This document shows positions 11,894-59,828 of a stretch of 64,000 nucleotides of DNA, in pieces. Where the stretch lies: positions 6,207 through 70,206 of the forward strand of contig JAUSGQ010000002.1 in the NCBI GenBank assembly GCA_030674455.1, read 5' to 3'. Origin of the DNA: a bacterium. Lineage in GTDB: Bacteria; Patescibacteriota; Minisyncoccia; Phycocordibacterales; UBA2100. The notes beneath the pieces were generated by a model that was not told the DNA's origin, did not search any database, and was given only the letters and a program-made list of their open reading frames with translations. The first letter of the stretch is position 1. Every line of letters begins with the position of its first letter. The translations under genes were made by a program, and so were the position numbers.

Positions 11894-12370
11894 CTAGTAA
11901 CCTTTTTCATATTTCCATTCTACGCTGTTTTCAGGATTTACGATGATAGTGGAGATTCCTTGCTGTGCCTTTGCTCCATTTACATACAGAATCCAGTAGT
12001 ATCCATCGGCCGCAATCTTGCCTGCCTGCCGCGCCGAACGCGGCGCAGGCAGGCCGTTTATTGATTCGACGAACGCGCCCATGCCGGGAAAATCTTTTGA
12101 TGTGAATCGAAATTTGGTGCTTGATGCGAGTATGTTCATAGCATCAAGGATTGTTGAGCCAGGCGGCACATTGTCTTCGTAGAGCTCTTCTCCGACGATA
12201 AGTGTGAACTCAATGCCAGTTGATTTTTCTGATGCCGCATTTAGCGCTCCCAAGGAGACACCTTGCAGAGCCAAGGAGTCACCTTGGGATGAAAGAAAAG
12301 AACGTTCAGAGAAATACGCACCCGCTCCGAGGACGATGATAGCAAGGAAAAGTAATAAATGTTTTCTCAT
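11894..12370 (-). CDS. Secreted stand-alone DUF4430 (transcobalamin-like C-terminal domain) protein
   Basis: Signal peptide plus the DGYYWILYVNG motif. It sits directly downstream of the cobalamin riboswitch. It carries an in-frame family-3 palindromic element encoding SQGDSLALQGVSLG. Confidence 0.7.
   Translation of the reverse strand: MRKHLLLFLAIIVLGAGAYFSERSFLSSQGDSLALQGVSLGALNAASEKSTGIEFTLIVGEELYEDNVPPGSTILDAMNILASSTKFRFTSKDFPGMGAFVESINGLPAPRSARQAGKIAADGYYWILYVNGAKAQQGISTIIVNPENSVEWKYEKGY
12249..12288. repeat. Family-3 palindromic element CCCAAGGAGACACCTTGCAGAGCCAAGGAGTCACCTTGGG, in-frame inside the DUF4430 gene
   Basis: It matches the intergenic copies at 51907..51952 and 58927..58977. 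Confidence 0.75.
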
Positions 12371-12381
12371 ATGTTATCTCT

Positions 12382-12405
12382 CCGCCTTCGCCAAGGCTTC
12401 GGCGG
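12382..12405. repeat. Family-1 core palindrome (CCGCC-TTCGCCAAGGCTTCG-GCGG) in the leader of the DUF4430 gene
   Basis: The core CGAAGCCTTGGCG is shared with copies at 15689, 32611 and 14223. Confidence 0.6.
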
Positions 12406-12420
12406 ATGATTTGCTACTGC

Positions 12421-12620
12421 AAATCAAAAAACTCCGCCCAAGCGGAGGTTACGTGCGTGCGCCGCAGCTGCGGCGTCAGCGGTCTCCTGCTCGGGATATC
12501 CGCTTTCTGAAGACCGGACTCGCCTCGGCTCGCCGTAGCTCCTTGCGGAGGCAGCTCACCAAGTTTTACCGTTGCGGCACAGTGGGGGAATCAAACCCCA
12601 ACTTCCACAGAAAGCAGTTG
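12421..12620 (-). promoter_or_regulatory. Cobalamin (AdoCbl) riboswitch with an intrinsic-terminator expression platform
   Basis: The minus-strand RNA reads GGAAGUUGGGGUUUGAUUCCCCCACUGUGCCGCAACGGUAAAAC. This closely parallels the btuB aptamer core (GGGAAUCCAGUGCGAAUCUGGAGCUGACGCGCAGCGGUAAGG). A downstream B12-box-like AGCAGGAGACCGCUG is present. The terminator CUCCGC-UUGG-GCGGAG plus UUUUUU lies at 12425..12447. A promoter TTGTGC, 16-nt spacer, TATAAT lies at 12625..12652 (minus strand). Confidence 0.75.
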
Positions 12621-12717
12621 TGGAATTATACGCGCGAAGCAAAGGCGCACAAGTGGATAACTTAATGCCTCATGTTCCAGATTACATTTCCCACGCCTGA
12701 TGATACAATGCGAAATT

Positions 12718-13791
12718 ATGGCGGAACTCATACCAGGCCCATCTTTTTTTATTGGAAAAGGGGATGACACAGACCTCATTTCGTTCGGCTCCGGACAGCC
12801 CGATTTGCCGCCGCCGCCGGAGGCATTTGATGCTTTAAAGCAGTATAACGGGTTCAAATACGGTCAAATTCAGGGAGAGGAATCGCTGCGCGCTAAACTC
12901 GCGGAAGAATACCCGGGAGCTAAGCCGGAGCATTTTGTCATAACGAACGGCGCGTCGGAGGCGATCGACCTTGTTCTGCGCTCAATTTCAAAATCGGGAG
13001 GCAAAATTCTTTTGCCGCGACCGTATTACTATTCCTATCCGTTCGTTGTGGGGTATGCGGGAATGACCGCAGAATATTACGACCTCGGCGAAGGAGGAAA
13101 AATAAATTACGAACAGTTTGCAGATATCGCGCCCGGATGCCGAGCGGTTCTTATCAATTCGCCCTCCAACCCGACCGGCACGGTTCAGGATATTGAGACG
13201 CTGAAAAAAGTCGAGGCGCTCTGCGACCGCCTGGGGCTCTATATTATTTCCGACGAAGTTTATAAAGACCTTATTTACGACAGAGAGAATTATTTGTTGC
13301 ACGGCAAACACGTCGTGACCGTAAACTCGTTCTCCAAAACCTACGCTATGTGCGGATTCCGAGTCGGCTATCTTTATTCGCCCGACGAGGATCTCGTTTC
13401 AAAAGTGGTGGAAATGAAGAATCACACGTCTATGAACACGAGCGTCGCAGCGCAGGTCATGGCGCTCGCGGCTCTCTCCGTGCCGGCATCCTATGTGGAA
13501 AAGCACGTAAAAATATGGAAGGAGCGGCGCGACATGATATATGCCGGCATGCTCGAACTTGGCCTCGAATTATGGAAGCCCGAGGGCGCGTTTTACGTCT
13601 TACCAAAGTTAAAGAATTCGGGCCGTGTCGTATCCGACCTCTACTACAAATACAGGATGATTTCTTACGATGGCGCATGGTTCGGCGCGCCCGACCACGT
13701 GCGCTTCAGCTACGCGCTCGATGCTTCCAAGATACAGGAGGGATTGAGGCGGCTTAAGAAATTTCTGGAGACTGACTATCGCGCGTATTAA
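12718..13791 (+). CDS. Class I/II pyridoxal-phosphate aminotransferase (AspC-like)
   Basis: NSPSNPTG and SFSKTYAMCGFRVGY (PLP-lysine motif). An alternative start is 12700. Confidence 0.75.
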   Translation: MAELIPGPSFFIGKGDDTDLISFGSGQPDLPPPPEAFDALKQYNGFKYGQIQGEESLRAKLAEEYPGAKPEHFVITNGASEAIDLVLRSISKSGGKILLPRPYYYSYPFVVGYAGMTAEYYDLGEGGKINYEQFADIAPGCRAVLINSPSNPTGTVQDIETLKKVEALCDRLGLYIISDEVYKDLIYDRENYLLHGKHVVTVNSFSKTYAMCGFRVGYLYSPDEDLVSKVVEMKNHTSMNTSVAAQVMALAALSVPASYVEKHVKIWKERRDMIYAGMLELGLELWKPEGAFYVLPKLKNSGRVVSDLYYKYRMISYDGAWFGAPDHVRFSYALDASKIQEGLRRLKKFLETDYRAY

Positions 13792-13796
13792 AGTGC

Positions 13797-15176
13797 ATGT
13801 TGAATTGTCAAAAACTGTTTGAAGGCAAAAAAATAACCGTGTTAGGGCTAGGACTCCTCGGGAGGGGACTCGGCGACGCGGAGTTCCTCGCGAAGTGCGG
13901 CGCGCATGTTCTCGTTACAGATAAGAAGACAGAAGCACAGCTCGCGGAATCGGTGGAGAAATTAAAACACTACAACAACGTTTCGTTCCGGCTCGGCGGG
14001 CACGATGAAAAAGATTTTGCGGGCCGCGACCTTGTGATTAAGGGCGCAAAAACTCCGCTCGACTCTCCGTACATAGCGGCGGCGCGAAAGGCGGGCGTTC
14101 CCGTTGTAATGTCCACCGCGCTCTTTGCGAAATACGCGATGGAGGAGGGCGCGATTATCGTAGGAATAACCGGCACGCGCGGAAAATCGACTGTGACGCA
14201 CATGATTCACTATGTGCTTATTTCCGCCTTCGCTAAAGCTTCGGCGGACAGGCGCGCTCCGAATGTGATTCTTGGGGGGAACATAAGAGGAATATCAACC
14301 CTTGCTATGCTTCCCGAAATTAAGAAAGGCGACATTGCCGTTCTAGAACTCGATTCGTGGCAACTGCAGGGATTTGGAGATTTACAAATCAGTCCGAACA
14401 TTTCCATCTTTACGAATTTGATGCCTGATCATCTGGACTACTATCAAGGATTGGATGCTTATTTTAACGACAAAGCTAATATTTTTAAGTTCCAAAAGCG
14501 AGGCGATTCACTGTTTGTTGGGAAGGGCATTTTGGAGAAAGTGAAGGCAACGCGGCCGGAGGCCGCGCCGCATGTTCCTCCGGCAATTCCCGCCGACTGG
14601 AAACTGCAAATTCCTGGCGAACATAATCGAGAAAACGCGTCGCTTGCCGCCGCCGCTCTTCGTTCTCTCGGCCTTCAAGAATCGGATATTCAAAGCGGGC
14701 TGGAATCATTTGTTGGTTTGGAAGGCCGGCTTCAACTTGTCGGTCAAATAAAGGGTGTGAACGTTTACAACGATACAAATGCAACCACTCCCGAGGCCAC
14801 GGTCGCCGCCTTGCGAGCCGTGGGAAATGCAAAAAATAGAAAGGTAGTTCTCATAATGGGTGGTGACGATAAATTTCTTGATATGTCCGCGCTCACTGCA
14901 GAAATACCGAAATGGTGCTCCAAAGTTGTTCTCTTTAAAGAACGCGGAACCGACCGAGTTCGTGATGAAGTGTTCGCGATGAAAAGTGAGGGTATGGATG
15001 TTTACGAGGAAGAGGGATTGCCCAATACCGCTGGCCGCGCGTTCTCCATCGCGGTTCCGGGCGAGACCATTTTATTCAGTCCGGCGTTTACCTCATTCGG
15101 CAAATACTTCAAGAACGAATATGACAGGGGGAATCAGTTCATGGCGCTAGTTCGCGCGCACACTGCAAACGGTTAG
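13797..15176 (+). CDS. murD: UDP-N-acetylmuramoyl-L-alanine--D-glutamate ligase
   Basis: N-terminal KKITVLGLG. GITGTRGKSTV P-loop. A DSWQL/MPDHLDYY region. It contains an in-frame family-1 palindrome insertion (ISAFAKASADRR). Confidence 0.85.
   Translation: MLNCQKLFEGKKITVLGLGLLGRGLGDAEFLAKCGAHVLVTDKKTEAQLAESVEKLKHYNNVSFRLGGHDEKDFAGRDLVIKGAKTPLDSPYIAAARKAGVPVVMSTALFAKYAMEEGAIIVGITGTRGKSTVTHMIHYVLISAFAKASADRRAPNVILGGNIRGISTLAMLPEIKKGDIAVLELDSWQLQGFGDLQISPNISIFTNLMPDHLDYYQGLDAYFNDKANIFKFQKRGDSLFVGKGILEKVKATRPEAAPHVPPAIPADWKLQIPGEHNRENASLAAAALRSLGLQESDIQSGLESFVGLEGRLQLVGQIKGVNVYNDTNATTPEATVAALRAVGNAKNRKVVLIMGGDDKFLDMSALTAEIPKWCSKVVLFKERGTDRVRDEVFAMKSEGMDVYEEEGLPNTAGRAFSIAVPGETILFSPAFTSFGKYFKNEYDRGNQFMALVRAHTANG
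14223..14248. repeat. Family-1 palindrome TCCGCCTTCGCTAAAGCTTCGGCGGA inside murD, in frame
   Basis: It is a variant of the 12382 copy. It adds about 10 aa right after the P-loop, compared with E. coli MurD. Confidence 0.7.
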
Positions 15177-15212
15177 TCTGACTAACCTGTCCGTTAGTCA
15201 GACTAACCCATC
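15171..15212. terminator. 17-bp perfect inverted repeat GGTTAGTCTGACTAACC-tgtc-GGTTAGTCAGACTAACC, a likely bidirectional terminator between convergent genes
   Basis: Each arm overlaps the stop codon of one of the convergent genes (murD TAG at 15174-15176; the minus gene at 15198). Confidence 0.5.
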
Positions 15213-15529: not shown

Positions 15530-16876
15530 ATGACAGTTTCGAATATTTACATGGTTGGCATAGGAGGTATAGGTATGTCGGCCCTTGCACAGCTTCTTGT
15601 GCATCAGGGCAAACAAGTGAGTGGGTCGGACAGAGAAGAGTCGCCCACGACAAGATTGCTTGCCGAAAAAGGAGTTTCCGTTTCAATCGGCCTGCTTGCC
15701 GAAGCCTCGGCGCAGGCAGGCCACGATAGGTGTCTCATACCTGCCGATACGGAACTTCTCATATACAGCGATGCCGTTTGGCTCGACAACCAGGAGCGAA
15801 TGCGCGCGAAAGAAATGAAAATCCCCGAAATGTCCTACTTTGAGGCGCTCGGTCAGGTTTCAAAGAAAATGAGAACACTTGCTGTCACGGGGACTCATGG
15901 GAAAACCACAACGACCGGAATGTTGGCGGCGATATTGAAGCACGCGGGGAAAGACCCGAGTGCCATAGTTGGTTCCATTGTGTCGGATTTTAAGTCCAAT
16001 TATCTTGAGGGACGCGATGACCTTCTTGTTGTTGAAGCGTGCGAATACAAAGACCATATGCTGAAACTCTCTCCAGAAATACTGGTGATGACAAATGCCG
16101 AATGGGACCACACCGATTACTTTCCTACGCTCGAGAAGATGCTGGAGTCGTTCAACAAAGCCGCGCGCGCGGTACCAAAGCATGGAGTTGTCGTCACGAA
16201 TCCTGACGGCGAGAATATGAGTGTTGTATTGAAAGGCGTTACAGCGCGCGTGGTTGATTATACGAAAGAATCAACCCCCATGCTCAAACTGCTAGGCGAA
16301 TTCAATCGTGAAAATGCGCGCGCCGCGAAAGCCGCGGCGCGCGCCGCATTTCCCGACATTGTTGAAACTGTCGCGGATGAGGCGCTTAAGAATTTCAAGG
16401 GCTCGTGGCGCCGGTTTGAATACAAAGGCGAAACGCCAAATGGAGCGCAAGTTTACGACGACTACGCGCACCACCCGACGGCGATTAAAAAAACTCTGCG
16501 CGCTGTACGAGAGAAGTTCCCCGGCAAAAGAATAGTCGTTGCATTTCACGCGCACCTCTATTCGAGAACAAGGGATTTGATGAAAGGGTTTGGCGAAGCG
16601 CTTGCCAAAGCCGATGAAGTAATTATCGCGCCGATTTACCCCGCGCGAGAGGAGCCGATTCCCGGTATCACAAATCACGCGCTCGCTGAAGCGGTGCGAA
16701 GGAGCCTGCCTGCCCTGCCTACCGGACAGGCAGGCGGCAGGCAGGGAAATGCCCGCGCTCTGGATTCGTTCAATGAAATCCGTGATGCTCTTCTTAAGTG
16801 CGATTCGGACACGCTAATCATCACAATGGGAGCGGGGGATATTTATAAAGTCGCCGAACAGATTATTGAGCAGTAA
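15530..16876 (+). CDS. murC: UDP-N-acetylmuramate--L-alanine ligase
   Basis: IYMVGIGGIGMSALAQLL...VTGTHGKTTTTGMLAAIL. It contains two in-frame family-1 palindrome insertions (LLAEASAQAG at 15689; SLPALPTGQAGGRQG at 16704). Confidence 0.85.
   Translation: MTVSNIYMVGIGGIGMSALAQLLVHQGKQVSGSDREESPTTRLLAEKGVSVSIGLLAEASAQAGHDRCLIPADTELLIYSDAVWLDNQERMRAKEMKIPEMSYFEALGQVSKKMRTLAVTGTHGKTTTTGMLAAILKHAGKDPSAIVGSIVSDFKSNYLEGRDDLLVVEACEYKDHMLKLSPEILVMTNAEWDHTDYFPTLEKMLESFNKAARAVPKHGVVVTNPDGENMSVVLKGVTARVVDYTKESTPMLKLLGEFNRENARAAKAAARAAFPDIVETVADEALKNFKGSWRRFEYKGETPNGAQVYDDYAHHPTAIKKTLRAVREKFPGKRIVVAFHAHLYSRTRDLMKGFGEALAKADEVIIAPIYPAREEPIPGITNHALAEAVRRSLPALPTGQAGGRQGNARALDSFNEIRDALLKCDSDTLIITMGAGDIYKVAEQIIEQ
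15689..15722. repeat. Family-1 palindrome GGCCTGCTTGCCGAAGCCTCGGCGCAGGCAGGCC inside murC, in frame
   Basis: It has the CCTGC(C/T)TGC / GCAGGCAGG arms with a CGAAGCC core. Confidence 0.8.
16704..16747. repeat. Family-1 palindrome GCCTGCCTGCCCTGCCTACCGGACAGGCAGGCGGCAGGCAGGG inside murC, in frame
   Basis: It has the same arm motifs and a nested arrangement. Confidence 0.75.
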
Positions 16877-16912
16877 GAACATTCCAACATTCTGCAGAAT
16901 GTTGGAATGTTC
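16877..16912. repeat. Family-2 perfect 36-bp palindrome GAACATTCCAACATTC-TGCA-GAATGTTGGAATGTTC
   Basis: It sits immediately after the murC stop. A second copy lies at 18098..18133, so the aminotransferase gene is bracketed. Confidence 0.85.
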
Positions 16913-16995
16913 TTAGGTGGGCCACACATAAATCTCCCTTTCAGGGCATATAGACCCCTTTTACATTTTTCCAATCAGTAAGTATTATAGCTCTA

Positions 16996-18097: not shown

Positions 18098-18133
18098 AAA
18101 CATTCCAACATTCTTGAGAATGTTGGAATGTTT
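18098..18133. repeat. Family-2 perfect palindrome AAACATTCCAACATTC-TTGA-GAATGTTGGAATGTTT
   Basis: See 16877..16912. Confidence 0.85.
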
Positions 18134-18182: not shown

Positions 18183-18435
18183 GGCACTTCCTTCGGGGTT
18201 TGGGTGATGTTCGTAAAGTACGGGCAAAGTCCCAATCGGCGGTAAAGCCCGTCCTCCTGCGCTAAAGCTATGGAGGACAAGCGAGTCCGCGAGCTCTGGT
18301 ATTTATCAGAGCACGACTGCGGTTTGATTCCGCGACCGACCGTATAGTCGGGATGAAAGAAGGAAACCGTACCGCATCACTGATGCATAATGGTACTGTT
18401 TCTATCCCCGAAGAAATGAGGGGATTTTCTATTTT
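18183..18435 (+). promoter_or_regulatory. FMN riboswitch (RFN element) with a terminator expression platform
   Basis: CTTCGGGGTTTGGGTGA...TCCCAATCGGCGGTAAAGCCCG...GATTCCGCGACCGACCGTATAGTCGGGATGAAAGAAGG matches the RFN consensus (UUCGGGGCAGGGUGAAAUUCCC.ACCGGCGGUA..AGCCCG...CCGACAGUGAAAGUCUGGAUGGGAGAAGG). The terminator TCCCC-gaagaaatga-GGGGA plus a T-tract lies at 18405..18435, just before the ribE ATG. Confidence 0.8.
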
Positions 18436-19514: not shown

Positions 19515-20803
19515 AAAGCTTAAAGAAAAAGTTTTGCACAGTGCCGGAAGCGATAGCGGAAATAAAGAAGGGCAAGATGCTCATTGTTGTTGATAGTCCG
19601 AAGCGGGAGAACGAGGCCGACTTATACATTCCCGCCGATGCCGCGACCGGAGAGAACATCAATACCATGCTGAAGTATGGAGGCGGTATTGTTTGCACCG
19701 CGATTACTCCTAAGCAAGCGCACAATCTCCGGCTTTCCGCGATGGTTCCCTTAAGACAGAATACCGAAAAGACAGGCGTGAATTTCACGATCTCGATGAA
19801 CGCAAAGAGAGGAATCACGAGCGGAGTTTCCGCATACGACAGGGCAAAAACGATACGCATACTCGCCAACCCAAAGTCGCGCCCTAGCGACATAGTAAAA
19901 CCAGGCCATGTGTTCGGGCTTGTGGCACGTGCCGGCGGCCTCTTGAAGCGTGAAGGCCACACCGAGGCGGCTGTTGATTTGGCGCGCCTTGCGGGGAGGG
20001 AGCCTGCGGGCGTCTTGTGCGAAATCGTCGGAAAAAATGGCCGCATGGCGCGAGGCGCCGAAATCCTGCGTTATGCGCGCGAACTTAAGGTAAAGATCGT
20101 GGCGATAAAAGATATTGTGCGATACCTGCGTGCGCATCCGCTTCCGCAACTTCAGTCTCCGCACGGTGTGGCGAGGTTCTCTGAATCCACGCTTCCCACG
20201 CTGCACGGAATGTTCCGCATCATCGTCTTCACGTCTACTATCGACGACCTTGAACATGTCGCGCTCATTCACCTGCCTGCCGCGCCCGCGGCGCAGGCAG
20301 GCGGCGATAGTAAAGAAATTTCGTCCGACGCTCATGGGAAGCCTGTTCTCGTCAGAGTTCACTCACAGTGTCTTACGGGAGACACATTCGGCTCCCTTCG
20401 GTGCGACTGCAGAGAACAATTGCAGGCAAGCATGGAAATAATCAGTAAGGCAGGAGGCGGAATCATTGTGTATCTCAATCAGGAAGGGCGCGGTATAGGG
20501 CTTGGAAATAAAATAAAAGCGTATGCGCTTCAGGATGAGGGGTACGACACGGTGGATGCAAACCACGCGCTTGGATTTGCCGCCGACGCGCGGGATTATG
20601 AAGTTGCCGCCATGATATTAAAAGACTTGGGCGCCAAAAGAATAGAATTGCTGTCCAATAATCCCGAGAAAGAAAAACAGCTTACCTCGTTCGGAATCAA
20701 TATCGCGAAAATGATCCCTCTGGAAATCCCACATAATGAGATAAACGCGGCATATCTTTCCGCAAAGAAAAAGAGGCTCGGCCACACATTAAAGAATGTT
20801 TAA
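19511..20803 (+). CDS. ribBA: Bifunctional 3,4-dihydroxy-2-butanone-4-phosphate synthase / GTP cyclohydrolase II
   Basis: The DHBP synthase half has RENEADL...GHTEAAVDLARLAG. The GCHII half has RVHSQCLTGD...CDCREQL. The inter-domain linker carries an in-frame family-1 palindrome (HLPAAPAAQAGGD). Confidence 0.9.
   Translation: MKSLKKKFCTVPEAIAEIKKGKMLIVVDSPKRENEADLYIPADAATGENINTMLKYGGGIVCTAITPKQAHNLRLSAMVPLRQNTEKTGVNFTISMNAKRGITSGVSAYDRAKTIRILANPKSRPSDIVKPGHVFGLVARAGGLLKREGHTEAAVDLARLAGREPAGVLCEIVGKNGRMARGAEILRYARELKVKIVAIKDIVRYLRAHPLPQLQSPHGVARFSESTLPTLHGMFRIIVFTSTIDDLEHVALIHLPAAPAAQAGGDSKEISSDAHGKPVLVRVHSQCLTGDTFGSLRCDCREQLQASMEIISKAGGGIIVYLNQEGRGIGLGNKIKAYALQDEGYDTVDANHALGFAADARDYEVAAMILKDLGAKRIELLSNNPEKEKQLTSFGINIAKMIPLEIPHNEINAAYLSAKKKRLGHTLKNV
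20273..20302. repeat. Family-1 palindrome CCTGCCTGCCGCGCCCGCGGCGCAGGCAGGC in the ribBA linker, in frame
   Basis: Canonical arms CCTGCCTGC/GCAGGCAGG. Confidence 0.8.
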
Positions 20804-22427: not shown

Positions 22428-22500
22428 GCCACCTTAGCTCAGTTGGTAGAGCACGTCTTTCGTAAAGACGATGTCCGCGGTTCGATTCCGCGAGGTGGCT
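22428..22500 (+). tRNA. tRNA-Thr (anticodon CGT)
   Basis: GCCACCTTAGCTCAGTTGGTAGAGCACGTCTTTCGTAAAGACGATGTCCGCGGTTCGATTCCGCGAGGTGGCT. Anticodon stem CGTCT/AGACG, loop TTCGTAA. T-loop GGTTCGATTCC. Confidence 0.9.
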
Positions 22501-22586
22501 CAAAATAGGTTTAAGCACGACAGCACTTTTACTGGCGACGTAGAGCGAGTGAAATGAAAACGTACTCATTTTCATTTCCGAGCCGA

Positions 22587-22645
22587 GCCTGCCTGCGCCC
22601 GCTGGCCTGCCTGTGCGTGGCACGCAGACAGGCGGGCAGGCAGGG
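22587..22645. repeat. Composite family-1 GC-rich nested palindrome downstream of tRNA-Thr. It contains the 26-mer CTGCCTGTGCGTGGCACGCAGACAGG, which is also found inside proC
   Basis: Outer arms GCCTGCCTGCGCCCGC / GCGGGCAGGCAGGG. The inner 26-mer is identical to 44163..44188. Confidence 0.8.
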
Positions 22646-22695
22646 AGTCAGAAACCGGCGTAACGCCCTGCGGTCTCGAAGTGAGACGGTTTACC

Positions 22696-23079
22696 CTATC
22701 CGCGCGCCTTTTTCGCTGCTTTTTTCGCGCCTTTCAGTGCTTCCAGCTTGACTGCTCGCGCGGAGCCGCCAATCGTTTTCCAGTGTTTTTTCAAATCTTG
22801 CGCCAGCGCCTTTATTTCTTCGCGGCTTGCCTTTTTTCCTTTCTCATACGTCGCGGCCACGGAATCAATGATTTCGCGGTACACCGGCTCGCTCACGTCG
22901 CGCGCCTTCTCTAATTTCTCAACGACATCGCCTTTCATCTTGATAGCCCATGCCTTTGTCTGCCTCCGATGCGCCTTACCTTTCGGCCCGAGAAAGAAAT
23001 AGGCCGCCGCCAAACTGGCAACACTCGCGCCGAGAACGGCCAATTTTGCCGCGCCTGAACTTTTGCTTGATTTTTTCAT
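22696..23079 (-). CDS. Hypothetical small membrane-anchored coiled-coil protein (YtxH-like)
   Basis: It has an N-terminal TM helix, and the rest is charged and helical. Confidence 0.4.
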   Translation of the reverse strand: MKKSSKSSGAAKLAVLGASVASLAAAYFFLGPKGKAHRRQTKAWAIKMKGDVVEKLEKARDVSEPVYREIIDSVAATYEKGKKASREEIKALAQDLKKHWKTIGGSARAVKLEALKGAKKAAKKARG

Positions 23080-23157
23080 TTTATTTTTGATATTAAAAAT
23101 ATTAATTGCTCGACCCCGCCGTCCACGCCGTTTCAGAAACGAATGTGTTACAGCAGA

Positions 23158-23400
23158 TTACTTTTTATCCTTGTTTTTCTTCCTCCGTGCGGGAGGGAAA
23201 AAAAGCCGAAAAACCATATTATCTTCCAAACGCTCCCGAAGCTCCGCGATGAATTCCTCCGATTCCTTGAAACCGCCCTTGAGTGCCTCTGAAAGGATGT
23301 AGAGATTTTTCCCCGCCTTGATTAAATAAAACAGGAGAATGGAAGCCAAAACCGCCAACACAACCGTTGACACGGAAGATATAAAAAAGAAAATGTCCAT
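23158..23400 (-). CDS. Hypothetical small membrane protein (80 aa)
   Basis: It has an N-terminal TM helix and a charged helical tail. Confidence 0.4.
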   Translation of the reverse strand: MDIFFFISSVSTVVLAVLASILLFYLIKAGKNLYILSEALKGGFKESEEFIAELRERLEDNMVFRLFFPPARRKKNKDKK

Positions 23401-23747
23401 TTTAAAGGAGAAATTCCAATGGACAAAAAATAAAGAACTTTCTTAATCGTATCCTCGCGCTTATCGCCAAAATCGCGCTACCGCAATAGCCGGAAATATG
23501 GTACCCCGTTAGAAGCCCGCCCGCCATCGCCCGAAAGCGACGGCAGTGACGAACTTGATGAGCGAATAAATACTTCCCGTTCGTTTTCATACCACTTGCC
23601 ACGCTCTGGCTTTGGCGGGCAGGTAGGAAGCGATGCTTCCCGCTTCAGAAAACTTACAGTGAGACCTATTCGGTATTCTGAAAGAGTCTTCTAACTTAGC
23701 ATATTTCAGCCTTCCGAGACTTCTAACGAGGTGGTATAATATACCTA

Positions 23748-23942
23748 ATGAAGCACTGGTCAGTCGATACGCGCGCGCTAGAGAATGACCCGGACGCGCT
23801 GGCCGTGTGGGAACTTGAGAATGCCGTCAATTTCGGAATTCGCGACGGTAAAATCAAGAAGCAAGACCTTCTCGCCTATTGGGACAAGCTTGAACTAGAC
23901 CCGCACAAAAAGAAGTTTCTTTCTCTCATACTATCGCAATGA
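23748..23942 (+). CDS. Small protein translationally coupled to the AbiEii-like toxin gene; putative antitoxin
   Basis: 64 aa. Stop and start overlap (ATGA) with the downstream gene. It is preceded by a TGGTATAAT extended -10 positioned so the transcript would be leaderless. Confidence 0.4.
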   Translation: MKHWSVDTRALENDPDALAVWELENAVNFGIRDGKIKKQDLLAYWDKLELDPHKKKFLSLILSQ

Positions 23943-24595
23943 CCTCCATTCTTTCGGACAACCAGCAAAAGTTGCTGAAATTGTTGAGCGAAGAGCAGCG
24001 CATTTGCCAGACATTTTACCTGTCTGGAGGGACAGCGCTTGCGGAGTTTTATTTGCAACATCGGCTCTCGGAAGATTTGGATTTCTTCTCGGAAGAAGAG
24101 TTCGAGCCGGAAGGCGTTTCTGCAGTATTGAAGAAGCTCCAAAAAGCAGTAGGAATTATCCGTGTGAGGTATGAACAATCTTTCAACAGAAATCTTTTTT
24201 TCCTTGAACTTGAGAAGGATGAAATTAAGACGGAGTTTACCTATTTTCCGTTCCCGCGAATCGAACAAAAGAAGAAGATTGGCAGTCTGCATATCGACAG
24301 CATCATCGATATCGCAGTCAATAAAATATTTACAATCTATCAAAAGCCTCGTTCGCGCGACTTCATTGATTTGTACTGCATTCTGAAGCGTGAGCCGTGG
24401 ACTATCGACGACCTCGTAAAGAAGGCGAGGATAAAATTCGATTATCATATAGACCCTCTGCAACTCGGCGCGCAGTTTCTGCGTGCGCAAGAGCTAAAGG
24501 ACTATCCGCGTATGCTCATACCTCTTGACGAGAACGCGTGGCAAAAGTTCTTTCTTGAGGAAGCGAAACGGTTGTCCCCCGAGATTCTCAAGTAA
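23939..24595 (+). CDS. Nucleotidyltransferase of the AbiEii/DUF1814 toxin family (type IV TA / abortive infection)
   Basis: It has the N-terminal motif YLSGGTALAEFYLQHRLSEDLDFF (G-G-x-A-L...R-x-S-x-D-x-D), typical of AbiEii nucleotidyltransferase toxins. 218 aa. Confidence 0.6.
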   Translation: MTSILSDNQQKLLKLLSEEQRICQTFYLSGGTALAEFYLQHRLSEDLDFFSEEEFEPEGVSAVLKKLQKAVGIIRVRYEQSFNRNLFFLELEKDEIKTEFTYFPFPRIEQKKKIGSLHIDSIIDIAVNKIFTIYQKPRSRDFIDLYCILKREPWTIDDLVKKARIKFDYHIDPLQLGAQFLRAQELKDYPRMLIPLDENAWQKFFLEEAKRLSPEILK

Positions 24596-24797
24596 ATCGG
24601 CTCTTTCGAGACCGCAGGGCGTTAAACCATGCGGCTCGAAAGACAGCCCTGCGCACAAGCGCAGGGCGTTGTGCCGATTTCTAACTCCTCGACTCGGAAG
24701 AGTACATGAGTACATGTACTCTTCTCTCGCTCTACGTCGCCAGCAAGAAGTCTGCCATGTAATAATTCAAGCCCTCTTACGGCTTCGTTAGCATGAA

Positions 24798-25292
24798 ATG
24801 AAAGAAACCAAAGCCATGCCAATAGGCAGGCAGGGATTTATCTCGCCCCTGCTCCTCGCGCTTATCGCTATCCTCGTGCTTGGCGGCGGGGCGTATGTGT
24901 ATGTACACAATAAGAAACAGGGGAATCAGCCCGTGGCTTCTTCTACTCAAGCAACATCAACGGCGCAGACTTTAGACTTGAAGACATCCCCACCTCCTCA
25001 AGCTGGGATGTTGCGATACCAAAGTTCTCTCGGCTTTAGCATAGACTATCCAGAAAAATGGAGGATTGAATCTGCGACGATTGAAGGGTTCGGAAGCATA
25101 AAGGAAGCGGAAAAAGTCAGCGGGAACCATTTTTCTATTTATAGTTATCCAGAAAATAATTCTTACAACCCCGGAGCTTCGGTGCCGCAGATGGAATTAG
25201 CAGAAAAGACACTTATCATTATCGGATACTGGAAGATTGGGCATCGAGTAGGAGAAACTGCAGAAGGGCGACAAAATATCTGTCGAGGATGA
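24798..25292 (+). CDS. Hypothetical secreted/membrane-anchored protein
   Basis: It has an N-terminal TM helix/signal anchor (ISPLLLALIAILVLGGGAYVYV). No recognised domain. Confidence 0.45.
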   Translation: MKETKAMPIGRQGFISPLLLALIAILVLGGGAYVYVHNKKQGNQPVASSTQATSTAQTLDLKTSPPPQAGMLRYQSSLGFSIDYPEKWRIESATIEGFGSIKEAEKVSGNHFSIYSYPENNSYNPGASVPQMELAEKTLIIIGYWKIGHRVGETAEGRQNICRG

Positions 25293-25395
25293 AAATGGGA
25301 CCATTACTACTTTTAGTGATATTTGCTGACAGACTATAACTCCTAAGCGATTTGATATACCCCATGAGATAAGAGAGTAAAAGATAATACGGTAA

Positions 25396-39264: not shown

Positions 39265-39287
39265 TGCGTGGGCGGTTTATCAAATCC

Positions 39288-39890: not shown

Positions 39891-39909
39891 TTGCGGACTG
39901 CGCTACTAT

Positions 39910-40575: not shown

Positions 40576-40743
40576 GAGGAAACCGGATGAGCCATGTTCC
40601 CGCCTGCTCCCGACCAGCGGGAGGGCGGGCAGGCCCGCGTGCGCCGAGCCTCGTCAGTATCTCGGTATGATGGGGCTTCGGCTGGCGGTCGCGGCAGGAT
40701 TGATGGCGCAATACTCATTAAAAAACATTAATAATTAATTACT

Positions 40744-41175: not shown

Positions 41176-41419
41176 TCTGACATTGTTATGCGCGCTTTCC
41201 AGGCAAAGAGAATGAAAGACGAGATCAGGCGCTTGATGCGGCTGACGCGTCCGCCGCGCATGGAAGGAGTCGTGAAAGAGGCGATGATGCAGCCGGTTCG
41301 GAAGCCGAAAATGTCGCGGGAGGAACCGCAGCGGCCGCGCAAGACGCAGGTAAGCACAGAGCAGCGCAAGGAATACCATTTGGCCGACCGGAGGCAAAAA
41401 TAATCTCGTACGCTCGCAT

Positions 41420-50179: not shown

Positions 50180-50617
50180 ATGAAGACAATACTGTTCATA
50201 CACGGCCCCAATCTTAATCTGCTCGGCGCGCGCGAGGCAGAGCACTACGGCACAAAAACGCTGTCAGATATTGAATCGTTGGTGAAAGAACAGGCGAAGA
50301 AATTGGGATTCGAAGTGCTTGCGTTCCAATCCAACCACGAGGGCGCACTGGTGGATTTCCTGCAGAAGGAAGGTCCGAAAGCCTCGGGCATCATCATCAA
50401 TCCCGGTGCGCTCACGCACTCGAGCTACACATTGCACGACGCACTTCGCGACACGAAATTGCCTGCCGTTGAAGTTCATCTTTCCGACATCAACTCCCGC
50501 GAGGAGTGGAGGCGCGTTTCCGTTACGGCTCCCGCGTGCATCGCGCAAGTTTCCGGAAAGAAGGAAGAGGGGTACATTGAAGCGCTAGAAGTTTTGCATA
50601 AGAACATCCAAGGATGA
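50180..50617 (+). CDS. aroQ: Type II 3-dehydroquinate dehydratase
   Basis: ILFIHGPNLNLLG...INPGALTHSSYTLHDA. Confidence 0.9.
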   Translation: MKTILFIHGPNLNLLGAREAEHYGTKTLSDIESLVKEQAKKLGFEVLAFQSNHEGALVDFLQKEGPKASGIIINPGALTHSSYTLHDALRDTKLPAVEVHLSDINSREEWRRVSVTAPACIAQVSGKKEEGYIEALEVLHKNIQG

Positions 50618-50673
50618 ATTTGCAATAATCAATTTGCAATTTGCAAAGAAATCACAATAAACAATTACCAAAC

Positions 50674-51906: not shown

Positions 51907-51952
51907 TTCCCGAGGTGACTCCTTGGTATTTTGCAAGGTGTCTCCTCGGGAG
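51907..51952. repeat. Family-3 palindromic element TTCCCGAGGTGACTCCTTGGTATTTTGCAAGGTGTCTCCTCGGGAG (reverse orientation relative to 58927)
   Basis: Its reverse complement differs from the 58927 copy at 2-3 positions. Confidence 0.8.
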
Positions 51953-52080
51953 CAAAACGATATCATCATCTGATGTCCGGCCGGACATTAGATGATGATA
52001 TGCCGGAAAACTTGACAGGGGGGGGTTCTCAATATGATAGCTGTCGGCTGTTCCGATTAATCTTCCAGAAAGGAGGGACT

Positions 52081-53531: not shown

Positions 53532-54660
53532 GACCATAGAAGCCAGTGTGGAGGGAGGAAAGGGATACTCCGTATCGATCGGTTTGGGGCTCGAAAAAGA
53601 ACTTCAGGAAATTGTGAGTCGAGAAGGAGGCGAGAATCGAATTGTAGTTATCACCGACAAACGCGTCGAGAAGTTTTTTGGAGCGCAGATTTTGTCGGCG
53701 CTTGAAATACCCCTGCCTGCGCCGCACGCGCGGCAGGCAGGTGGAAAACCCGTGGAGCTTTACAGTTTTTCGGAAGGGGAACGCAACAAGAATCAAAAGA
53801 CGGTAACGGCGCTTCAGCATGAGCTTCTGAACGGAAGATACGGACGCGACACTCTCATTATTGCAGTCGGTGGGGGAATTGTTGGCGATGTTGGCGGATT
53901 CGTAGCGGCGACATACATGCGCGGCGTTCCCTATATAAACGTCCCGACGACGCTTCTCGCGATGGTAGACAGTTCCATTGGAGGGAAAGTCGGCATTGAT
54001 ACAAAGTACGGAAAAAACACCATTGGCAGTTTCTGGCAGCCGCGCGCTGTAATCATGGATATTCAGTATCTCGCAAAAATGCCGCGCGAGCAGATAATAA
54101 ACGGCTTGCTTGAGGCCGTGAAGACTTTTATGACATCGGACCGCGAGGCACTTTCTCTCGTAGAAAAACTCAATCTTGATGAGCCGCTAGAAAACCCGGA
54201 GGTTCTTCAAGAAATTATTTTCCGCTCCGTTAACATTAAAGTCGGAGTAACGAGCCGGGATGTGCGCGAGGGAGGCGAGCGGATGGTACTCAATTTCGGA
54301 CATACTATCGGACACGCGATTGAACTGCTTTCCGGCTACCGTTTGCCGCACGGTTTTGCCGTGGGCTATGGCATTTTGGCCGAAGCGAAGATTTCTGAAT
54401 TGCTCGGCATACTTTCGCCGGCGGATTGCGCAGAAATCTACAAGCATTTTGCTCGCCTTGGAATTACTCCAAAGGATTTTCCTCAACACTCTCCGGAAAA
54501 GATTCTTGAAGCGACGCTTGGGGATAAGAAAACGCGTGGCGGAGTACCGCGCTATGTCTTACTTGAGTCCATCGGAAAAGTGCAGGTGAAGGAGGGCAAA
54601 TTTGCTCATCCGGTTGCGGACGATGTTGTTACAAAAGCGCTCCAAGACTTAAGACAATAA
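53521..54660 (+). CDS. aroB: 3-dehydroquinate synthase
   Basis: LIIAVGGGIVGDVGGFVAATYMRGVPYINVPTTLLAMVDSSIGGK. It contains an in-frame family-1 palindrome (PLPAPHARQAGGK). Confidence 0.9.
   Translation: MQTKTIEASVEGGKGYSVSIGLGLEKELQEIVSREGGENRIVVITDKRVEKFFGAQILSALEIPLPAPHARQAGGKPVELYSFSEGERNKNQKTVTALQHELLNGRYGRDTLIIAVGGGIVGDVGGFVAATYMRGVPYINVPTTLLAMVDSSIGGKVGIDTKYGKNTIGSFWQPRAVIMDIQYLAKMPREQIINGLLEAVKTFMTSDREALSLVEKLNLDEPLENPEVLQEIIFRSVNIKVGVTSRDVREGGERMVLNFGHTIGHAIELLSGYRLPHGFAVGYGILAEAKISELLGILSPADCAEIYKHFARLGITPKDFPQHSPEKILEATLGDKKTRGGVPRYVLLESIGKVQVKEGKFAHPVADDVVTKALQDLRQ
53712..53741. repeat. Family-1 palindrome CCTGCCTGCGCCGCACGCGCGGCAGGCAGG inside aroB, in frame
   Basis: Canonical arms. 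Confidence 0.8.
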
Positions 54661-54810
54661 TTTGCAAATACCAATTTGCAATTTGCAAAAGAATCCACAA
54701 ATTCCAAGCGTCAGAAGAGGCGATTATTTGTGAATTGAGTTTTGGAATTTCATTTGCAAATTGCAAATTGAGATTTAGGGGTGAGATTTACTAATGGTAT
54801 ACTGCCAACA

Positions 54811-56211: not shown

Positions 56212-57230
56212 TTAACAAGGAAATGCATCTTCGGGAGGACTTGTTTTCCGCCAAAGGCGGATCCGCCTCCGGCGGAGATGGTCCAACTATGGTGCCCACA
56301 CGCAACGGATTTGGCAAAGGCGTTGTGGAGGCAGGCCGCGCCGATGTGCGCGTCGTCGTCCTTTCCGCTGATTTGGCGGAATCAACCAGAGCGGACGCGT
56401 TTCAGAAAGAGTTTCCGGAACGGTTTGTAGAAGTAGGAGTAGCCGAGCAAAATATGGCTACTGTGGCGGCCGGAATGGCGGCCTTTGGCAAAATACCCTT
56501 TATCACTTCATACGCGACATTCTCCCCGGGGCGCAATTGGGAGCAGATTCGTACGACTGCCGCCATCAACAATATGCCGGTGAAAGTGTGCGGGATGCAC
56601 GCGGGGCTTCTCACGGGTCCTGACGGCGCGACCCATCAGGCGCTTGAAGACATCGCGCTAATGCGCGCCATGCCGAACATGATTGTCATTTCGCCGTGCG
56701 ACGCAGAGGAAGGGCGCAGAGCTACTCTTGCGGCGGCAAAAACCGGCACACCGGTGTATCTGCGTTTTGGGCGCGACAAAACGCCGGTCATGACTACGCC
56801 GGAAACGCCGTTTGAGATAGGCAAGGCGCAAGTGTTCTGGAAAAGCAACAATCCGAAAGTTGCTGTGTTCGCGACAGGGCATCTTGTACACAGCGCGCTT
56901 CTCGCGGCGCGCGAGCTAGAAGGAAAGGGAATTGGCACCGCTGTCGTAAATGTTCATACCATAAAGCCGTTGGACAAAGACCTGATTGTTTCGCTCGCGC
57001 GCGAAACAGGATCCGTAGTTACCGTGGAGGAACACCAAATAGCAGGCGGACTTGGCGGAGCTATCGCGGAACTTCTCGCGCAAGAATGTCCTACGCCAAT
57101 AGAATTTGTCGGCGTACAAGACAAATTCGGGCAATCAGGCGAACCAAAGGAGTTGTTAGAGGCTTACGGTCTTGGCGTTTCCCACATCATCGAGGCTATA
57201 AAAAAAGCCCTTGCAAGAAGAGGCATCTAA
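56208..57230 (+). CDS. tktC: Transketolase, C-terminal (pyrimidine-binding + C-terminal domain) subunit
   Basis: FGKGVVEAG...VVVLSADLAES...FVEVGVAEQNMATVAAGMA...HAGLLTGPDGATHQALEDIALMRAMPNM. The start overlaps the DUF296 stop. Confidence 0.85.
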   Translation: MINKEMHLREDLFSAKGGSASGGDGPTMVPTRNGFGKGVVEAGRADVRVVVLSADLAESTRADAFQKEFPERFVEVGVAEQNMATVAAGMAAFGKIPFITSYATFSPGRNWEQIRTTAAINNMPVKVCGMHAGLLTGPDGATHQALEDIALMRAMPNMIVISPCDAEEGRRATLAAAKTGTPVYLRFGRDKTPVMTTPETPFEIGKAQVFWKSNNPKVAVFATGHLVHSALLAARELEGKGIGTAVVNVHTIKPLDKDLIVSLARETGSVVTVEEHQIAGGLGGAIAELLAQECPTPIEFVGVQDKFGQSGEPKELLEAYGLGVSHIIEAIKKALARRGI

Positions 57231-58376: not shown

Positions 58377-58488
58377 GTAACAAGAACAGGAACAAAGGAA
58401 CAGTAATATAAAAAGACGAACCCAGCAAAAGCGGCTAGGTTCGCCTTTCCTTTTGCTTGGTTGAGAAATTCCTGCCGACCCTCGGTTC

Positions 58489-58797
58489 CTAGTACATCAG
58501 CGCCTGATCGTCCAGTTTCGGGCCCGCAACTCTTTTCATGTTTTCGAGCATGATACCGAGCGTTCCTTGTTGGCGCTTAAGAATCTCGCGATCAGAACTG
58601 CTCGGAATCATCCCCCAATTATGGGCGAGTGCAATTTGCTCCATGCTTTGGATCCGGAGAGATTCGGCCAGACCAATATTAAATTCCTTAGCAGCTTTCA
58701 GTGCCAAGCGAAAAAATTGTATTGCGTTTTGCCAGTGTGTCATGATTAGTCCTTGGGTAATGAGCCGAGCGTCCCTCGGCGGGTATTCGTGAATCAA
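58489..58797 (-). CDS. Hypothetical protein (102 aa), TTG start
   Basis: ORF only. No SD and a non-ATG start. Confidence 0.3.
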   Translation of the reverse strand: MIHEYPPRDARLITQGLIMTHWQNAIQFFRLALKAAKEFNIGLAESLRIQSMEQIALAHNWGMIPSSSDREILKRQQGTLGIMLENMKRVAGPKLDDQALMY

Positions 58798-58926
58798 CGT
58801 CCAATTACAAGCCAGCCAGCACTATCGCAAATCAGAGAGAGAGTCAATGGAAAGTGGCAGTCAGTAGTTAGTAGAAAGTAGTCAGTATGATACGAGAGAA
58901 ATCCCCAAGGTTTCACCTCAAATGCA

Positions 58927-58977
58927 GAATTCCCGAGGAGACACCTTGCAAATGCCAAGGAGTCACCTCGGGAATTC
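58927..58977. repeat. Family-3 palindromic element GAATTCCCGAGGAGACACCTTGCAAATGCCAAGGAGTCACCTCGGGAATTC
   Basis: 12-bp perfect outer arms (GAATTCCCGAGG/CCTCGGGAATTC). The interior is shared with 12249 and 51907. Confidence 0.85.
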
Positions 58978-59052
58978 TTTGCAAATTGCAAATTGCCAAA
59001 TTGAGATTTCCCGAGTTTTGCATTTTGGTCTTCCTCGGTTATACTCTCGCCC

Positions 59053-59748
59053 ATGTTAGCGCTTGAAATCAAAGCTCGGGAGCCGAATGAGTCGGTAGAT
59101 GCTCTGCGGAAACGCGGCGCAATTCCCGCTGTTTTCTATGGCCCGAAGGAGGGCGCGACCGCGATTTCCATTGATGCTCTTAAGTTTGGCAGTGTCTGGA
59201 AAGAGGCAGGCGAAACAACGGTGATTCAGCTCAAAGGAATCGGCGACGCAAAAGAAACCCTAATTCACGACGTGCAATTCCACCCTGTCACCAGCGTCCC
59301 GCTACACGCAGATTTCTATGTGCTTGAGAAAGGAAAGAAAATCCGCATTAAAGTTCCACTTAAATTTATCGGCGTTGCGCCAGCTGAAAAAGCGGGAAAT
59401 ATTGTTTCCAAGGTATTGCACGAAATCGAAATTGAAGTGGCACCGGCTGAATTGCCGCACGACTTGCCGGTGGACATCGGAGGCCTTGCGAATGTGGGTG
59501 AGCACATTACCGCGGCTGATATAAAACTTCCTCCGAGCGCTGCGCTTATTACGGCTGCAGGCGATATCGTCGTCACCATCATAGAATTTAAAGAAGAAAA
59601 GATAGAAGAACCGGTAGTAGCGGCAGCGGCAGAAGGCGCTCCAGTTGCGGGAGAGGCCGGAGCGGCTCCAGCCGGAGCGGAAGCGGGGGCGCCAAAAGCA
59701 GGAGCACCGGAAGCAAAGAAAGAGGAGAAGAAGGAAGCGAAGAAGTAG
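59053..59748 (+). CDS. rplY: 50S ribosomal protein L25 / general stress protein Ctc, with an Ala/Glu/Pro/Lys-rich low-complexity C-terminal tail
   Basis: The N-terminus KAREPNESVDALRKRGAIPAVFYG matches L25. A TTGCAT, 16-nt spacer, TATACT promoter ends 9 nt before the ATG, which would make the mRNA leaderless. Confidence 0.85.
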   Translation: MLALEIKAREPNESVDALRKRGAIPAVFYGPKEGATAISIDALKFGSVWKEAGETTVIQLKGIGDAKETLIHDVQFHPVTSVPLHADFYVLEKGKKIRIKVPLKFIGVAPAEKAGNIVSKVLHEIEIEVAPAELPHDLPVDIGGLANVGEHITAADIKLPPSAALITAAGDIVVTIIEFKEEKIEEPVVAAAAEGAPVAGEAGAAPAGAEAGAPKAGAPEAKKEEKKEAKK

Positions 59749-59765
59749 TTCGTAACTACTTTGTT

Positions 59766-59828
59766 CAGTTCCCGAGGAGACATCTCCCCCTTTGGGTGAG
59801 CCTGCCAGAGGCAGGCAGGCCTCGGGAA
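59766..59828. repeat. Composite element with family-3 outer arms (TTCCCGAGG...CCTCGGGAA) around a family-1 core (GCCTGCCAGAGGCAGGCAGGC)
   Basis: It links families 1 and 3 as modular variants. Confidence 0.6.

Follow-up and report, generated by a model that had tools for sequence, protein, structure and literature searches.

A 64-kb stretch of a Parcubacteria genome (candidate phyla radiation, CPR), hereafter the window, contains very short palindromic DNA elements that occur both between genes and in frame within housekeeping genes. We interpret them as mobile palindromic repeats of very small size that coexist here in several families and are of the kind represented by repetitive extragenic palindromic sequences (REPs), REP doublets forming hairpins (REPINs) and Rickettsia palindromic elements (RPEs), with Y1-type enzymes as their likeliest movers and with loop-compatible in-frame copies kept by selection. 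To this reading we assign a probability of roughly 0.7. About one gene in five in the window carries an in-frame palindrome, essential genes included, and in alignments every intragenic copy that could be tested appears as a clean in-frame insertion missing from orthologs, congeners included.

The window was compared with 80 loci surrounding murC from species representatives, with six congener contigs surrounding aroB, with additional congeners found through exact-protein look-ups, and with homolog sets for CapA and MurC. The bacterium belongs to the Parcubacteria/Paceibacteria group and is Kaiserbacteria-like. The closest species-representative MurC in GTDB is 66% identical to that of the window, and the congeners used for DNA alignment share 75-82% nucleotide identity with it. 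Loci or contigs of relatives are labeled L, homologous proteins P, and palindrome families F1 to F7. Pfam agrees with all host genes named in a preliminary description of this DNA, namely DUF4430, murD, murC, ribBA, PGA_cap/capA, proC and aroB.

The GC-rich family F1 consists of the arms CCTGCCTGC...GCAGGCAGG around variable and sometimes nested centers. Its existence, proposed in the preliminary description, is borne out by counts far over shuffle expectation: the pattern CCTGCCTGC-N(4-34)-GCAGGCAGG has five exact occurrences in the window against 0.00 expected (0 in 100 shuffles), and the 9-mer GCAGGCAGG occurs 15 times in 64 kb against 0.45 expected. Eight of the roughly 12 F1-type copies in the window are intragenic. 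A systematic hairpin scan revealed at least seven palindrome families with 12-14 in-frame copies in 64 kb; the earlier count was too low, having missed the twin hairpins in proA and transketolase, the AT-rich ones of capA and purN, and one of the two copies carried by the DUF4430 gene. Two palindromes previously assigned CCTGCC arms, one in murD (14223) and one at 12381-12406, form instead a hybrid family with TCCGCC/GGCGGA arms and a shared CGAAGCCTTGGCG core. The remaining families are F3 (TCCCGAGGAGACACCTTG...CAAGGAGTCACCTCGGGA), the AT-rich F4 (ACATTCCAACATTCT..AGAATGTTGGAATGT, plus a variant in purN), F5 (ACTTGCTTATTCGC/GCGAATAAGCAAGT), F6 (doublets with an AGTC-W-GACT core) and F7 (a twin hairpin with two units of TCCGCCnnnGGCGGA). 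F3, F6 and F7 occur as doublets, hybrids of F1 and F7 arms with common cores exist, and copies of F4 and F5 are located precisely at gene 3' ends. Elements measure 18-60 bp, their inserts 24-42 nt (8-14 amino acids, aa), and they fold as stable single-stranded DNA hairpins, with z-scores between -2 and -7 for most. In the window, Rfam at gathering thresholds matched only a flavin mononucleotide (FMN) riboswitch and three tRNAs, and no palindrome corresponded to a known RNA family.

Insertions of 24-42 nt are seen at the DNA level in proA, proC, aroB, the DUF4430 gene and capA. In aroB, the F1 copy at 53712-53741 (encoding LPAPHARQAG) is an exact 30-nt insertion, missing from the DNA of L081, L082 and L086 and from the protein of six out of six congeners. 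The DUF4430 gene (11894-12370, minus strand) contains an exact F1 match at 12021-12053 that encodes LPAPRSARQAG and adds exactly 33 nt relative to the congeners L099 and L100; six more distant orthologs lack it too. A same-site F1 copy in L017 was set aside, since the gene there looks frameshifted. The same gene carries an F3 inverted repeat in the stretch encoding the N-terminal linker (SQGDSLALQGVSLG; 12248-12289; fold z-score -6.1). The L099 protein is shorter at this site, though with so much variation around it that no clean indel can be delimited. This third family had been described at the DUF4430 gene and two intergenic sites, and we find it at 12248, 51908 and 58926. The F1 variant in proC (44163-44188; LPVRGTQTG) is part of a 27-nt insertion missing in L086 and L089, and the claimed identity of this copy with an intergenic one is exact, the 26-mer CTGCCTGTGCGTGGCACGCAGACAGG being common to 22607-22632 and 44163-44188.

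Three inserts lie in capA. The F1 copy at 32611-32644 (GLPAEALAQAG) belongs to a 42-nt insertion; the closest relatives, L089 and L092, lack it, and only 2 of 40 homologs have it. A perfect AT-rich F4 palindrome at 33105-33136 (HSNILENVGM) is missing from most of these 40 homologs, and other relatives have F7-like or core-type elements at its site. Between the two, at 32926-33030, lies an old, degenerate composite insert of about 31 aa, common to L089 and L092 and missing in most homologs; P0129 and others have F1 copies there. The F7 twin hairpins behave similarly: one (TCCGCCGAAGGCGGA-TCCGCCTACGGCGGA) in a proA-like aldehyde dehydrogenase gene at 45775-45804 (SAEGGSAYGG; fold z-score -4.7) is missing in L086 and L089, and another in the transketolase (pyrimidine-binding/C-terminal) gene at 56247-56276 (SAKGGSASGG) is a 30-nt insertion that the window shares with L081 and that L082-L086 lack.

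At the protein level, insertions of 9-12 aa are found in murD, at two sites in murC and in ribBA. The murD element (14223-14248), whose core reads CGAAGC(T/C)TT(A/G)GCG, encodes AFAKASADR and follows the helix after the P-loop. The preliminary description had placed about 10 extra residues right after the P-loop; in our alignments about 65 of 70 orthologs, and likewise PDB entry 3lk7, are without these 9 aa. An identical copy exists in L099 and none in L100, and other palindromes occupy the post-P-loop site in L005, L015, L033 and L055. At murC site 1 (15689-15722; F1, encoding GLLAEASAQA), 68 of 79 orthologs are exactly 10 aa shorter, nine are shorter still and two have inserts of their own; only 2 of 45 close homologs share the insert. 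L099 lacks it, L100 has an F1 copy with a different core at the same point, and L002, whose protein is 64% identical, has F1 one codon away. Site 2 (16704-16745) holds a nested F1 copy (SLPALPTGQAGG); here 45 of 79 orthologs are exactly 12 aa shorter, none equals the window length, and among these 79 orthologs and the 45 close homologs the 12-aa insert is confined to the window. As many as 74 of the 80 relatives' loci have no F1 palindrome whatever. The F1 copy in ribBA (20270-20303; LPAAPAAQAGG), earlier placed in a linker, actually lies inside the GTP-cyclohydrolase-II domain, where it adds 12 aa relative to Mycobacterium tuberculosis RibA2 (4i14) and 17 aa relative to L013; it is common to the congeners L099 and L100, the L100 copy being longer. 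In purN, an F4-like palindrome at 1593-1624 encodes YSQILKNLRI and adds about 8 aa relative to PDB entry 3av3.

As a negative control we used a GC-rich palindrome with a 12-bp stem at 16316-16344 in murC (NARAAKAAARAAF), which is not an element and encodes a native Ala-rich helix conserved in all orthologs. Two more sporadic insert families, LNRPVRTVGRTDVPRT and PEGQQAAYGAG, were noticed at other sites of the relatives' MurC proteins (P0250-P0270, P0258-P0262, P0344). The latter is nested in P0254, and the distribution of both among MurC homologs does not track sequence identity. Because of these further families, the phenomenon appears to be clade-wide.

Outside genes, a hybrid palindrome lies at 12381-12406 between the DUF4430 start codon and a match to the adenosylcobalamin (AdoCbl, cobalamin) riboswitch at 12500-12617 on the minus strand, and it overlaps the Shine-Dalgarno sequence. 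The match behind the claimed riboswitch control of this gene is merely sub-threshold, at 32.4 bits against a gathering score of 50. The hairpin is missing in L099 and replaced by a different element in L100. An F6 doublet with the AGTC-W-GACT core sits between murD and murC (15171-15208; missing in L099), and F4 copies are found at the murC stop codon (16874-16915) and after an aminotransferase gene (18098-18133). The element at 22587-22645 is a nested F1 copy in which the proC-type 26-mer lies within an outer F1. It begins a variable island (22505-25400) that adjoins tRNA-Thr (22428-22501) and includes an AbiEii toxin gene (23939-24595); in L089, L092, L099 and L100 a major facilitator superfamily (MFS) transporter gene follows tRNA-Thr in its place. 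A degenerate F1-like palindrome upstream of the HSP20 gene (40599-40633) is probably intergenic, the open reading frame (ORF) that encloses it having no family match.

Family F3 is represented between genes at 51908-51951, where it varies among congeners, and at 58926-58978, where it is common to L086 and interrupted in L082. A further F3-like element (59769-59898) is interrupted at 59801-59883 by an 83-nt insert that holds the F1 copy CCTGCCAGAGGCAGGCAGG and a further repeat, CCTGGATTGCTTCGC...; L086 has the F3-like element uninterrupted at the 59769 site. The composite previously described at 59766 is real. The further repeat, CCTGGATTGCTTCGC(T)..GCTCGCAA, recurs at 59842-59856 and 63475-63489 and within the F3 copy of L082. 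Next to the F3 copy at 51908 lies a perfect palindrome with 21-bp arms (51960-52001), kept in L081 and L082 with compensatory changes in mid-stem; it stands directly upstream of a promoter-like sequence (TTGACA - G-run - TATGAT) that is itself kept in L086 as well.

The presence or absence of insertions varies among genomes that are 75-82% identical in DNA, and identical sequences turn up at unrelated places. The F7 30-mer TCCGCCAAAGGCGGATCCGCCTCCGGCGGA, located in transketolase in the window, occupies the extreme 3' end of rpmE, in frame, in L086, and the F1 19-mer CCTGCCAGAGGCAGGCAGG, at 59801 in the window, follows pfkB in L086. Elements also insert into one another. At murC site 2, L100 holds the minimal 20-nt CCTGCCTGCCGGCAGGCAGG alone, so that the window copy can be read as a second F1 inserted at the center of the first. 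Other cases of nesting are the F1 within F1 at 22587, the insert at 59801-59883 within an F3-like element, and, in L096, a capA F4 palindrome whose loop has received an insert. The same loops have been occupied independently at murC site 1, capA site 3, the purN site and the post-P-loop site of murD: capA site 3 holds an F4, F7-like or core element depending on the relative, and the purN site an F4-like element in the window and an F1 variant in L100. In an unbiased census of the window genes against ten congener loci we counted about 25 internal indels of at least 6 aa. Eight of them carry hairpins of nine or more paired bases, a feature expected in 1-4% of random segments, and about 13 are recognizable family members. 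By this sequence comparison, over half of the larger indels between congeners appear to derive from such elements.

Some copies retain their pairing while their sequence changes. The F4 copy at the murC stop codon keeps its position in L099 and L100, and in L099 several changes on both arms retain the perfect palindrome. Two double compensatory changes separate the capA F4 copy of L094 from that of the window; one requires a nonsynonymous N-to-Y replacement, and L089 is intermediate with one mismatch. Perfect stems persist in copies common to proteins only about 57-77% identical. This upkeep could be due to selection for the structure, to correction templated by the hairpin or to replacement with a sister copy. 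A 32-nt F4 palindrome, AACATTCCAACATTCTTGAGAATGTTGGAATGTT, was also seen in identical form in a distant relative whose MurC is 48% identical (L059:11621 and 12000; L003:248), and because of this identity F4 would be old or horizontally shared.

The intragenic copies were said to keep the reading frame, and all seven F1 copies within window genes share even one register, xxC CTG CCT GC, read as LPA...QAG. Were the frames equiprobable, such agreement would have a probability of (1/3)^6. Since the remaining frames are open as well, this preference probably stems from selection against Cys- and Arg-rich readings. The idea that inserts fall in loops agrees with AlphaFold2 models computed with family alignments. 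In the MurC model (mean predicted local distance difference test score, pLDDT, 89), the sole residues below 50 are 56-65 and 400-402, which belong to the two inserts and are predicted as coil; the site 2 insert lies in coil between helix 382-391 and strand 407-410. The CapA model (mean pLDDT 79) falls below 50 at 191-208, the composite insert, and at 235-242, the F4 insert, as well as at residues 28-32, where there is no insert; the F1 insert scores about 62-70. PDB alignments of the ribBA and murD inserts likewise place them between secondary-structure elements. As modeled, the inserts are the lowest-confidence coil segments between secondary-structure elements.

A candidate mobilizing enzyme is encoded near the end of the window, just past the range that the preliminary description covered. 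The gene at 61283-61981 (plus strand, 232 aa) specifies a Y1/HUH transposase-like protein that resembles REP-associated tyrosine transposases (RAYTs), and it is flanked by F6 hairpins, with a doublet directly upstream (61230-61271) and a single hairpin directly downstream (61987-62005). The protein matches Pfam Y1_Tnp with E = 1.3e-9 (38.7 bits, cutoff 23), and 39 homologs, the most distant 54% identical, all retain its HUH motif (H84-F-H86), Y144 and N149. In L087 and L088 a syntenic ortholog likewise lies between an EnvC-like gene and rpmE, and hairpins flank the gene in four genomes (the window, L018, L087 and L088). In the window these hairpins have the form ACACAAGTC(A/T)GACTTGTGT; across the four genomes the AGTC-W-GACT core is kept, and the outer stems differ yet remain self-complementary, that is, they covary. 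Unlike the window, L082, L087 and L088 have a second paralog (33% identical) situated between transketolase and pfkB; the palindromes flanking it belong to one family in L082 and L088 and to another in L087. The Y1 family comprises at least 964 members, of which the few named ones are annotated as 'transposase' of Patescibacteria, Kaiserbacteria or unclassified metagenome-assembled genomes (MAGs).

In the mechanism we propose, a copy would be excised or copied as a single-stranded hairpin and integrated without target duplication, often at the center of an existing hairpin or at a few recurrent sites. No target-site duplication is found at the empty sites of aroB, proC, DUF4430, murC and capA. 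Because intergenic space makes up only about 10% of the genome, most insertions would fall in genes, and selection would then retain copies whose length is a multiple of three, which are free of stops, read in a benign frame and lie in loops between secondary-structure elements. RAYT-like Y1/HUH enzymes, one of them encoded at 61283-61981, are the likeliest candidates for mobilizers. That Y1 enzymes move these hairpins is, taken by itself, a tentative proposal with slightly less than an even chance. Enzymes cognate to F1, F3, F4 and F7, one for each, would be encoded in other parts of the genome.

Several observations weigh against this interpretation. The F6 hairpins flanking the Y1 gene are low-copy and intergenic only, and neither the window nor relatives' loci totaling about 1.2 Mb yielded a Y1 gene flanked by F1, F3, F4 or F7; a tblastn search of these loci with three Y1 proteins brought up no additional Y1 gene. 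Y1 enzymes are accordingly tied to the abundant in-gene families by inference. The best NCBIfam match of the Y1 protein, REP_Tyr_transpos, scores 39 bits, below the cutoff of 80, and in sequence and profile searches of the PDB the family reached weakly ISDra2 TnpA alone (profile E = 0.026), not the E. coli RAYT structure. No conserved GTAG/CGTC foot tetranucleotide was seen beside eight F1 copies or beside the F6 and F7 copies, all inspected by eye, with no formal motif search, and the empty sites of the five genes named above yielded no target-site motif; a loose tendency toward G or GG 5' of the insert was judged not solid. The purN copy of L100 is read in another frame (LPACAAHADRQ), and repeated occupation of one site could reflect gene conversion between copies. 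Finally, at least 120 IMG/VR contigs, ranging in GC content from 0.31 to 0.72 (L101-L220), contain the F1 pattern, as compared with 71 contigs for a control with permuted arms.

Among the viral matches listed, F1 is mostly a minimal perfect palindrome of 18 or 20 nt, and a single contig has at most three copies; gap lengths of 0 and 2 nt are the commonest, and certain inner stems are similar to those of window copies. In the permuted-arm control, gap lengths seem spread over the range, judging from coordinates that were not tallied. A frame analysis of the viral copies was dropped, as high-GC contigs carry spurious long ORFs in all frames, and the 120 viral loci contain no Y1 gene. F1-type hairpins thus exist outside this lineage too, and the arms may not be lineage-specific. 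This could reflect carriage by phages, common descent or some generic tendency of (CCTG)2 arms.

The rival account closest to ours keeps the RPE-like selfish palindromes and lets them spread independently of the Y1 gene, through recombination or gene conversion based on the 9-nt arms or through hairpin-primed repair, the Y1 enzyme serving F6 only. It would explain why the F6 family beside the Y1 gene is low-copy and never intragenic and why no Y1 gene is tied to F1; the differing F1 cores at murC site 1 in congeners are what arm-mediated conversion or core swapping would give, and the common cores of the F1/F7-arm hybrids agree with it. Conversion is unable, however, to make a copy at a formerly empty site, as in aroB, proC and DUF4430, and the lineage has multiple hairpin-specific Y1 paralogs, the genome being seen here through 64 kb. 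We consider this account unlikely. Far less probable is that the palindromes are functional motifs selected by the host, such as pairs of uptake sequences, terminator or mRNA-stabilizing hairpins, or protein-binding sites that reach into genes. Such a role would suit the strong over-representation of the 9-mer, the exact placement of F4 and F5 at gene 3' ends, the compensatory changes that keep the murC-end F4 paired in L099, the perfect pairing of the capA F4 in L094 despite two double changes, and the overlap of the 12381 hairpin with a Shine-Dalgarno sequence below a riboswitch-like region. Against these stand the appearance of intragenic copies as whole insertions of 27-42 nt rather than through point mutation and their sporadic distribution among close relatives, the 12381 hairpin itself being missing or replaced in congeners. 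DNA uptake sequences (DUS/USS), moreover, normally occur as single copies in one orientation, gained by substitution, whereas F1 copies are obligatory inverted pairs that arrive whole.

Two further possibilities carry next to no weight. The extra residues might be native lineage-specific linkers, with palindromes as a by-product of Ala/Gly/Pro-rich coding, and the conserved Ala-rich helix at murC 16316-16344 is indeed such a case. The preliminary description had named the same residues in repeat-free relatives as the finding that would speak for native linkers; the other copies tested are missing from orthologs, even from congeners 75-82% identical, which favors insertion, and the same sequences occur between genes, with an identical 26-mer and an identical 30-mer at unrelated loci. 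As the source is a MAG contig, hairpin-induced chimeras of assembly or binning could also be imagined, a notion hard to reconcile with identical elements at identical sites in independent assemblies of other samples (murD and ribBA in L099, F7 in L081), with intact reading frames and with predicted proteins already deposited (P0001, P0121, P0241).

A wider form of the mobile-repeat reading would hold that hairpin insertion is the dominant source of protein-length change across Parcubacteria/Kaiserbacteria-like CPR, driven by a Patescibacteria-specific Y1 clade whose substrates prefer hairpin centers and hot-spot loops, and that intragenic hairpins are actively kept. We regard this extension as doubtful. 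If it were true, intragenic hairpins would be functional at the DNA or RNA level or continuously re-templated, and the many viral contigs with F1-related hairpins would suggest that phages spread them.

In-frame palindromes within housekeeping genes are a hallmark of the RPEs of Rickettsia (PMC10969869, summarizing Ogata et al. 2000/2002). The elements described here resemble RPEs in that copies are found both between genes and in frame within unrelated housekeeping genes, are missing from orthologs, encode a family-typical peptide in a consistent frame, form fold-compatible inserts, and belong to several families in a reduced genome. They differ in length, RPE-1 measuring about 100-150 bp (about 30-50 aa) against 18-60 bp here, in host, which is a patescibacterium rather than an alphaproteobacterium, and in their nesting, reused loops and the presence nearby of a hairpin-flanked Y1 gene; the likeness is one of description. 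The RPE-like reading of the preliminary description is thus supported, although intragenic palindromes of 20-40 bp are not unprecedented, and because a Y1 gene flanked by hairpins lies in the window, REP/REPIN systems are at least as good an analogy.

RAYTs mobilize REPs, a RAYT gene with flanking hairpins being termed a REPtron, and in-frame REPs occur within tnpAREP (RAYT) genes (PMC6006769). The elements of the window share with REP/REPIN-RAYT systems (PMC3116915, PMC6006769) their form as imperfect palindromes of 20-40 bp, often in inverted doublets and in several families, the single-copy syntenic Y1/HUH gene with its own hairpins, if for F6 only, the existence of several paralogs each with its own hairpin family, and the placement of copies at gene 3' ends. 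Canonical REPs are, however, overwhelmingly extragenic and GTAG/CGTC-footed, whereas most F1 copies here are intragenic and no tag is visible; the 232-aa Y1 protein represents a divergent clade under the NCBIfam RAYT cutoff; and the abundant families F1, F4 and F7 are not the one that flanks the Y1 gene, F6. Intragenic REPs have been cataloged by Di Nocera et al. (2013), according to whom RPE-4 and RPE-6 of R. conorii are CGTC REPs (PMC3733652). Like the present elements, intragenic REPs, including the GTAG repeats of Opitutus terrae, lie in frame within ORFs as single or dimeric units of about 10-30 aa and are proposed to occupy loops or linkers. Theirs are GTAG/CGTC-tagged and enriched in replication and repair genes, whereas those found here are untagged and lie in genes of cell-wall, cofactor and amino-acid biosynthesis, at a density of about one gene in five.

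The small dispersed repeats (SDRs) of Nostoc and other cyanobacteria, the subject of work by Elhai and colleagues in 2008, are reportedly mobile near-palindromes of about 21-27 nt with nested insertions. Both they and the present elements are tiny and nested, but lineage and sequences differ, and colonization of essential genes in frame is not said to be an SDR hallmark. Insertion sequences (IS) of the IS1397/ISKpn1 type insert into REP loops as full-length elements with their own DDE transposase. They share with our elements a preference for palindrome centers; here the inserted unit is itself a tiny palindrome.

Literature searches found no report of such elements in CPR, Patescibacteria or Parcubacteria. 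New here are the lineage, the untagged state of the elements (neither GTAG nor CGTC), their density and large intragenic share, the conspicuous nesting with reuse of hot spots, and the divergent Y1 clade; intragenic REPs and RPEs are already published, and the phenomenon is not categorically new. CPR genomes are tiny, streamlined and usually described as poor in repeats and mobile DNA, with which the dense translated hairpins of the window contrast. If the pattern is genome-wide, it would provide a concrete mechanism for rapid protein-length evolution in CPR, a map of essential-enzyme loops that tolerate insertions of 10 aa, and strain-typing markers in metagenomes; inserts may also mislead gene callers, alignments and phylogenies of CPR proteins. 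REP-RAYT-like systems, mainly studied in Proteobacteria, would then reach another phylum, and nesting and hot spots would offer a natural system for the study of hairpin target choice.

Several features of the window were noted in passing. The FMN riboswitch (18185-18368, 68.7 bits) lies upstream of the riboflavin operon, which consists of ribE-like (18436), ribH-like (19071), ribBA (19511) and ribD (20809) genes. A segment of about 3.3 kb (38128-41418), with genes for a cyclophilin, a DUF2238 membrane protein and HSP20 and two unassigned ORFs, is without a counterpart in the otherwise syntenic L089. Lastly, AATTTGCAA(A)T / CAAATTGCAAATTGCC motifs recur in the spacers 50617-50642, 54659-54767 and 58982-59027 and possibly represent a further repeat class, a binding site or a promoter element.

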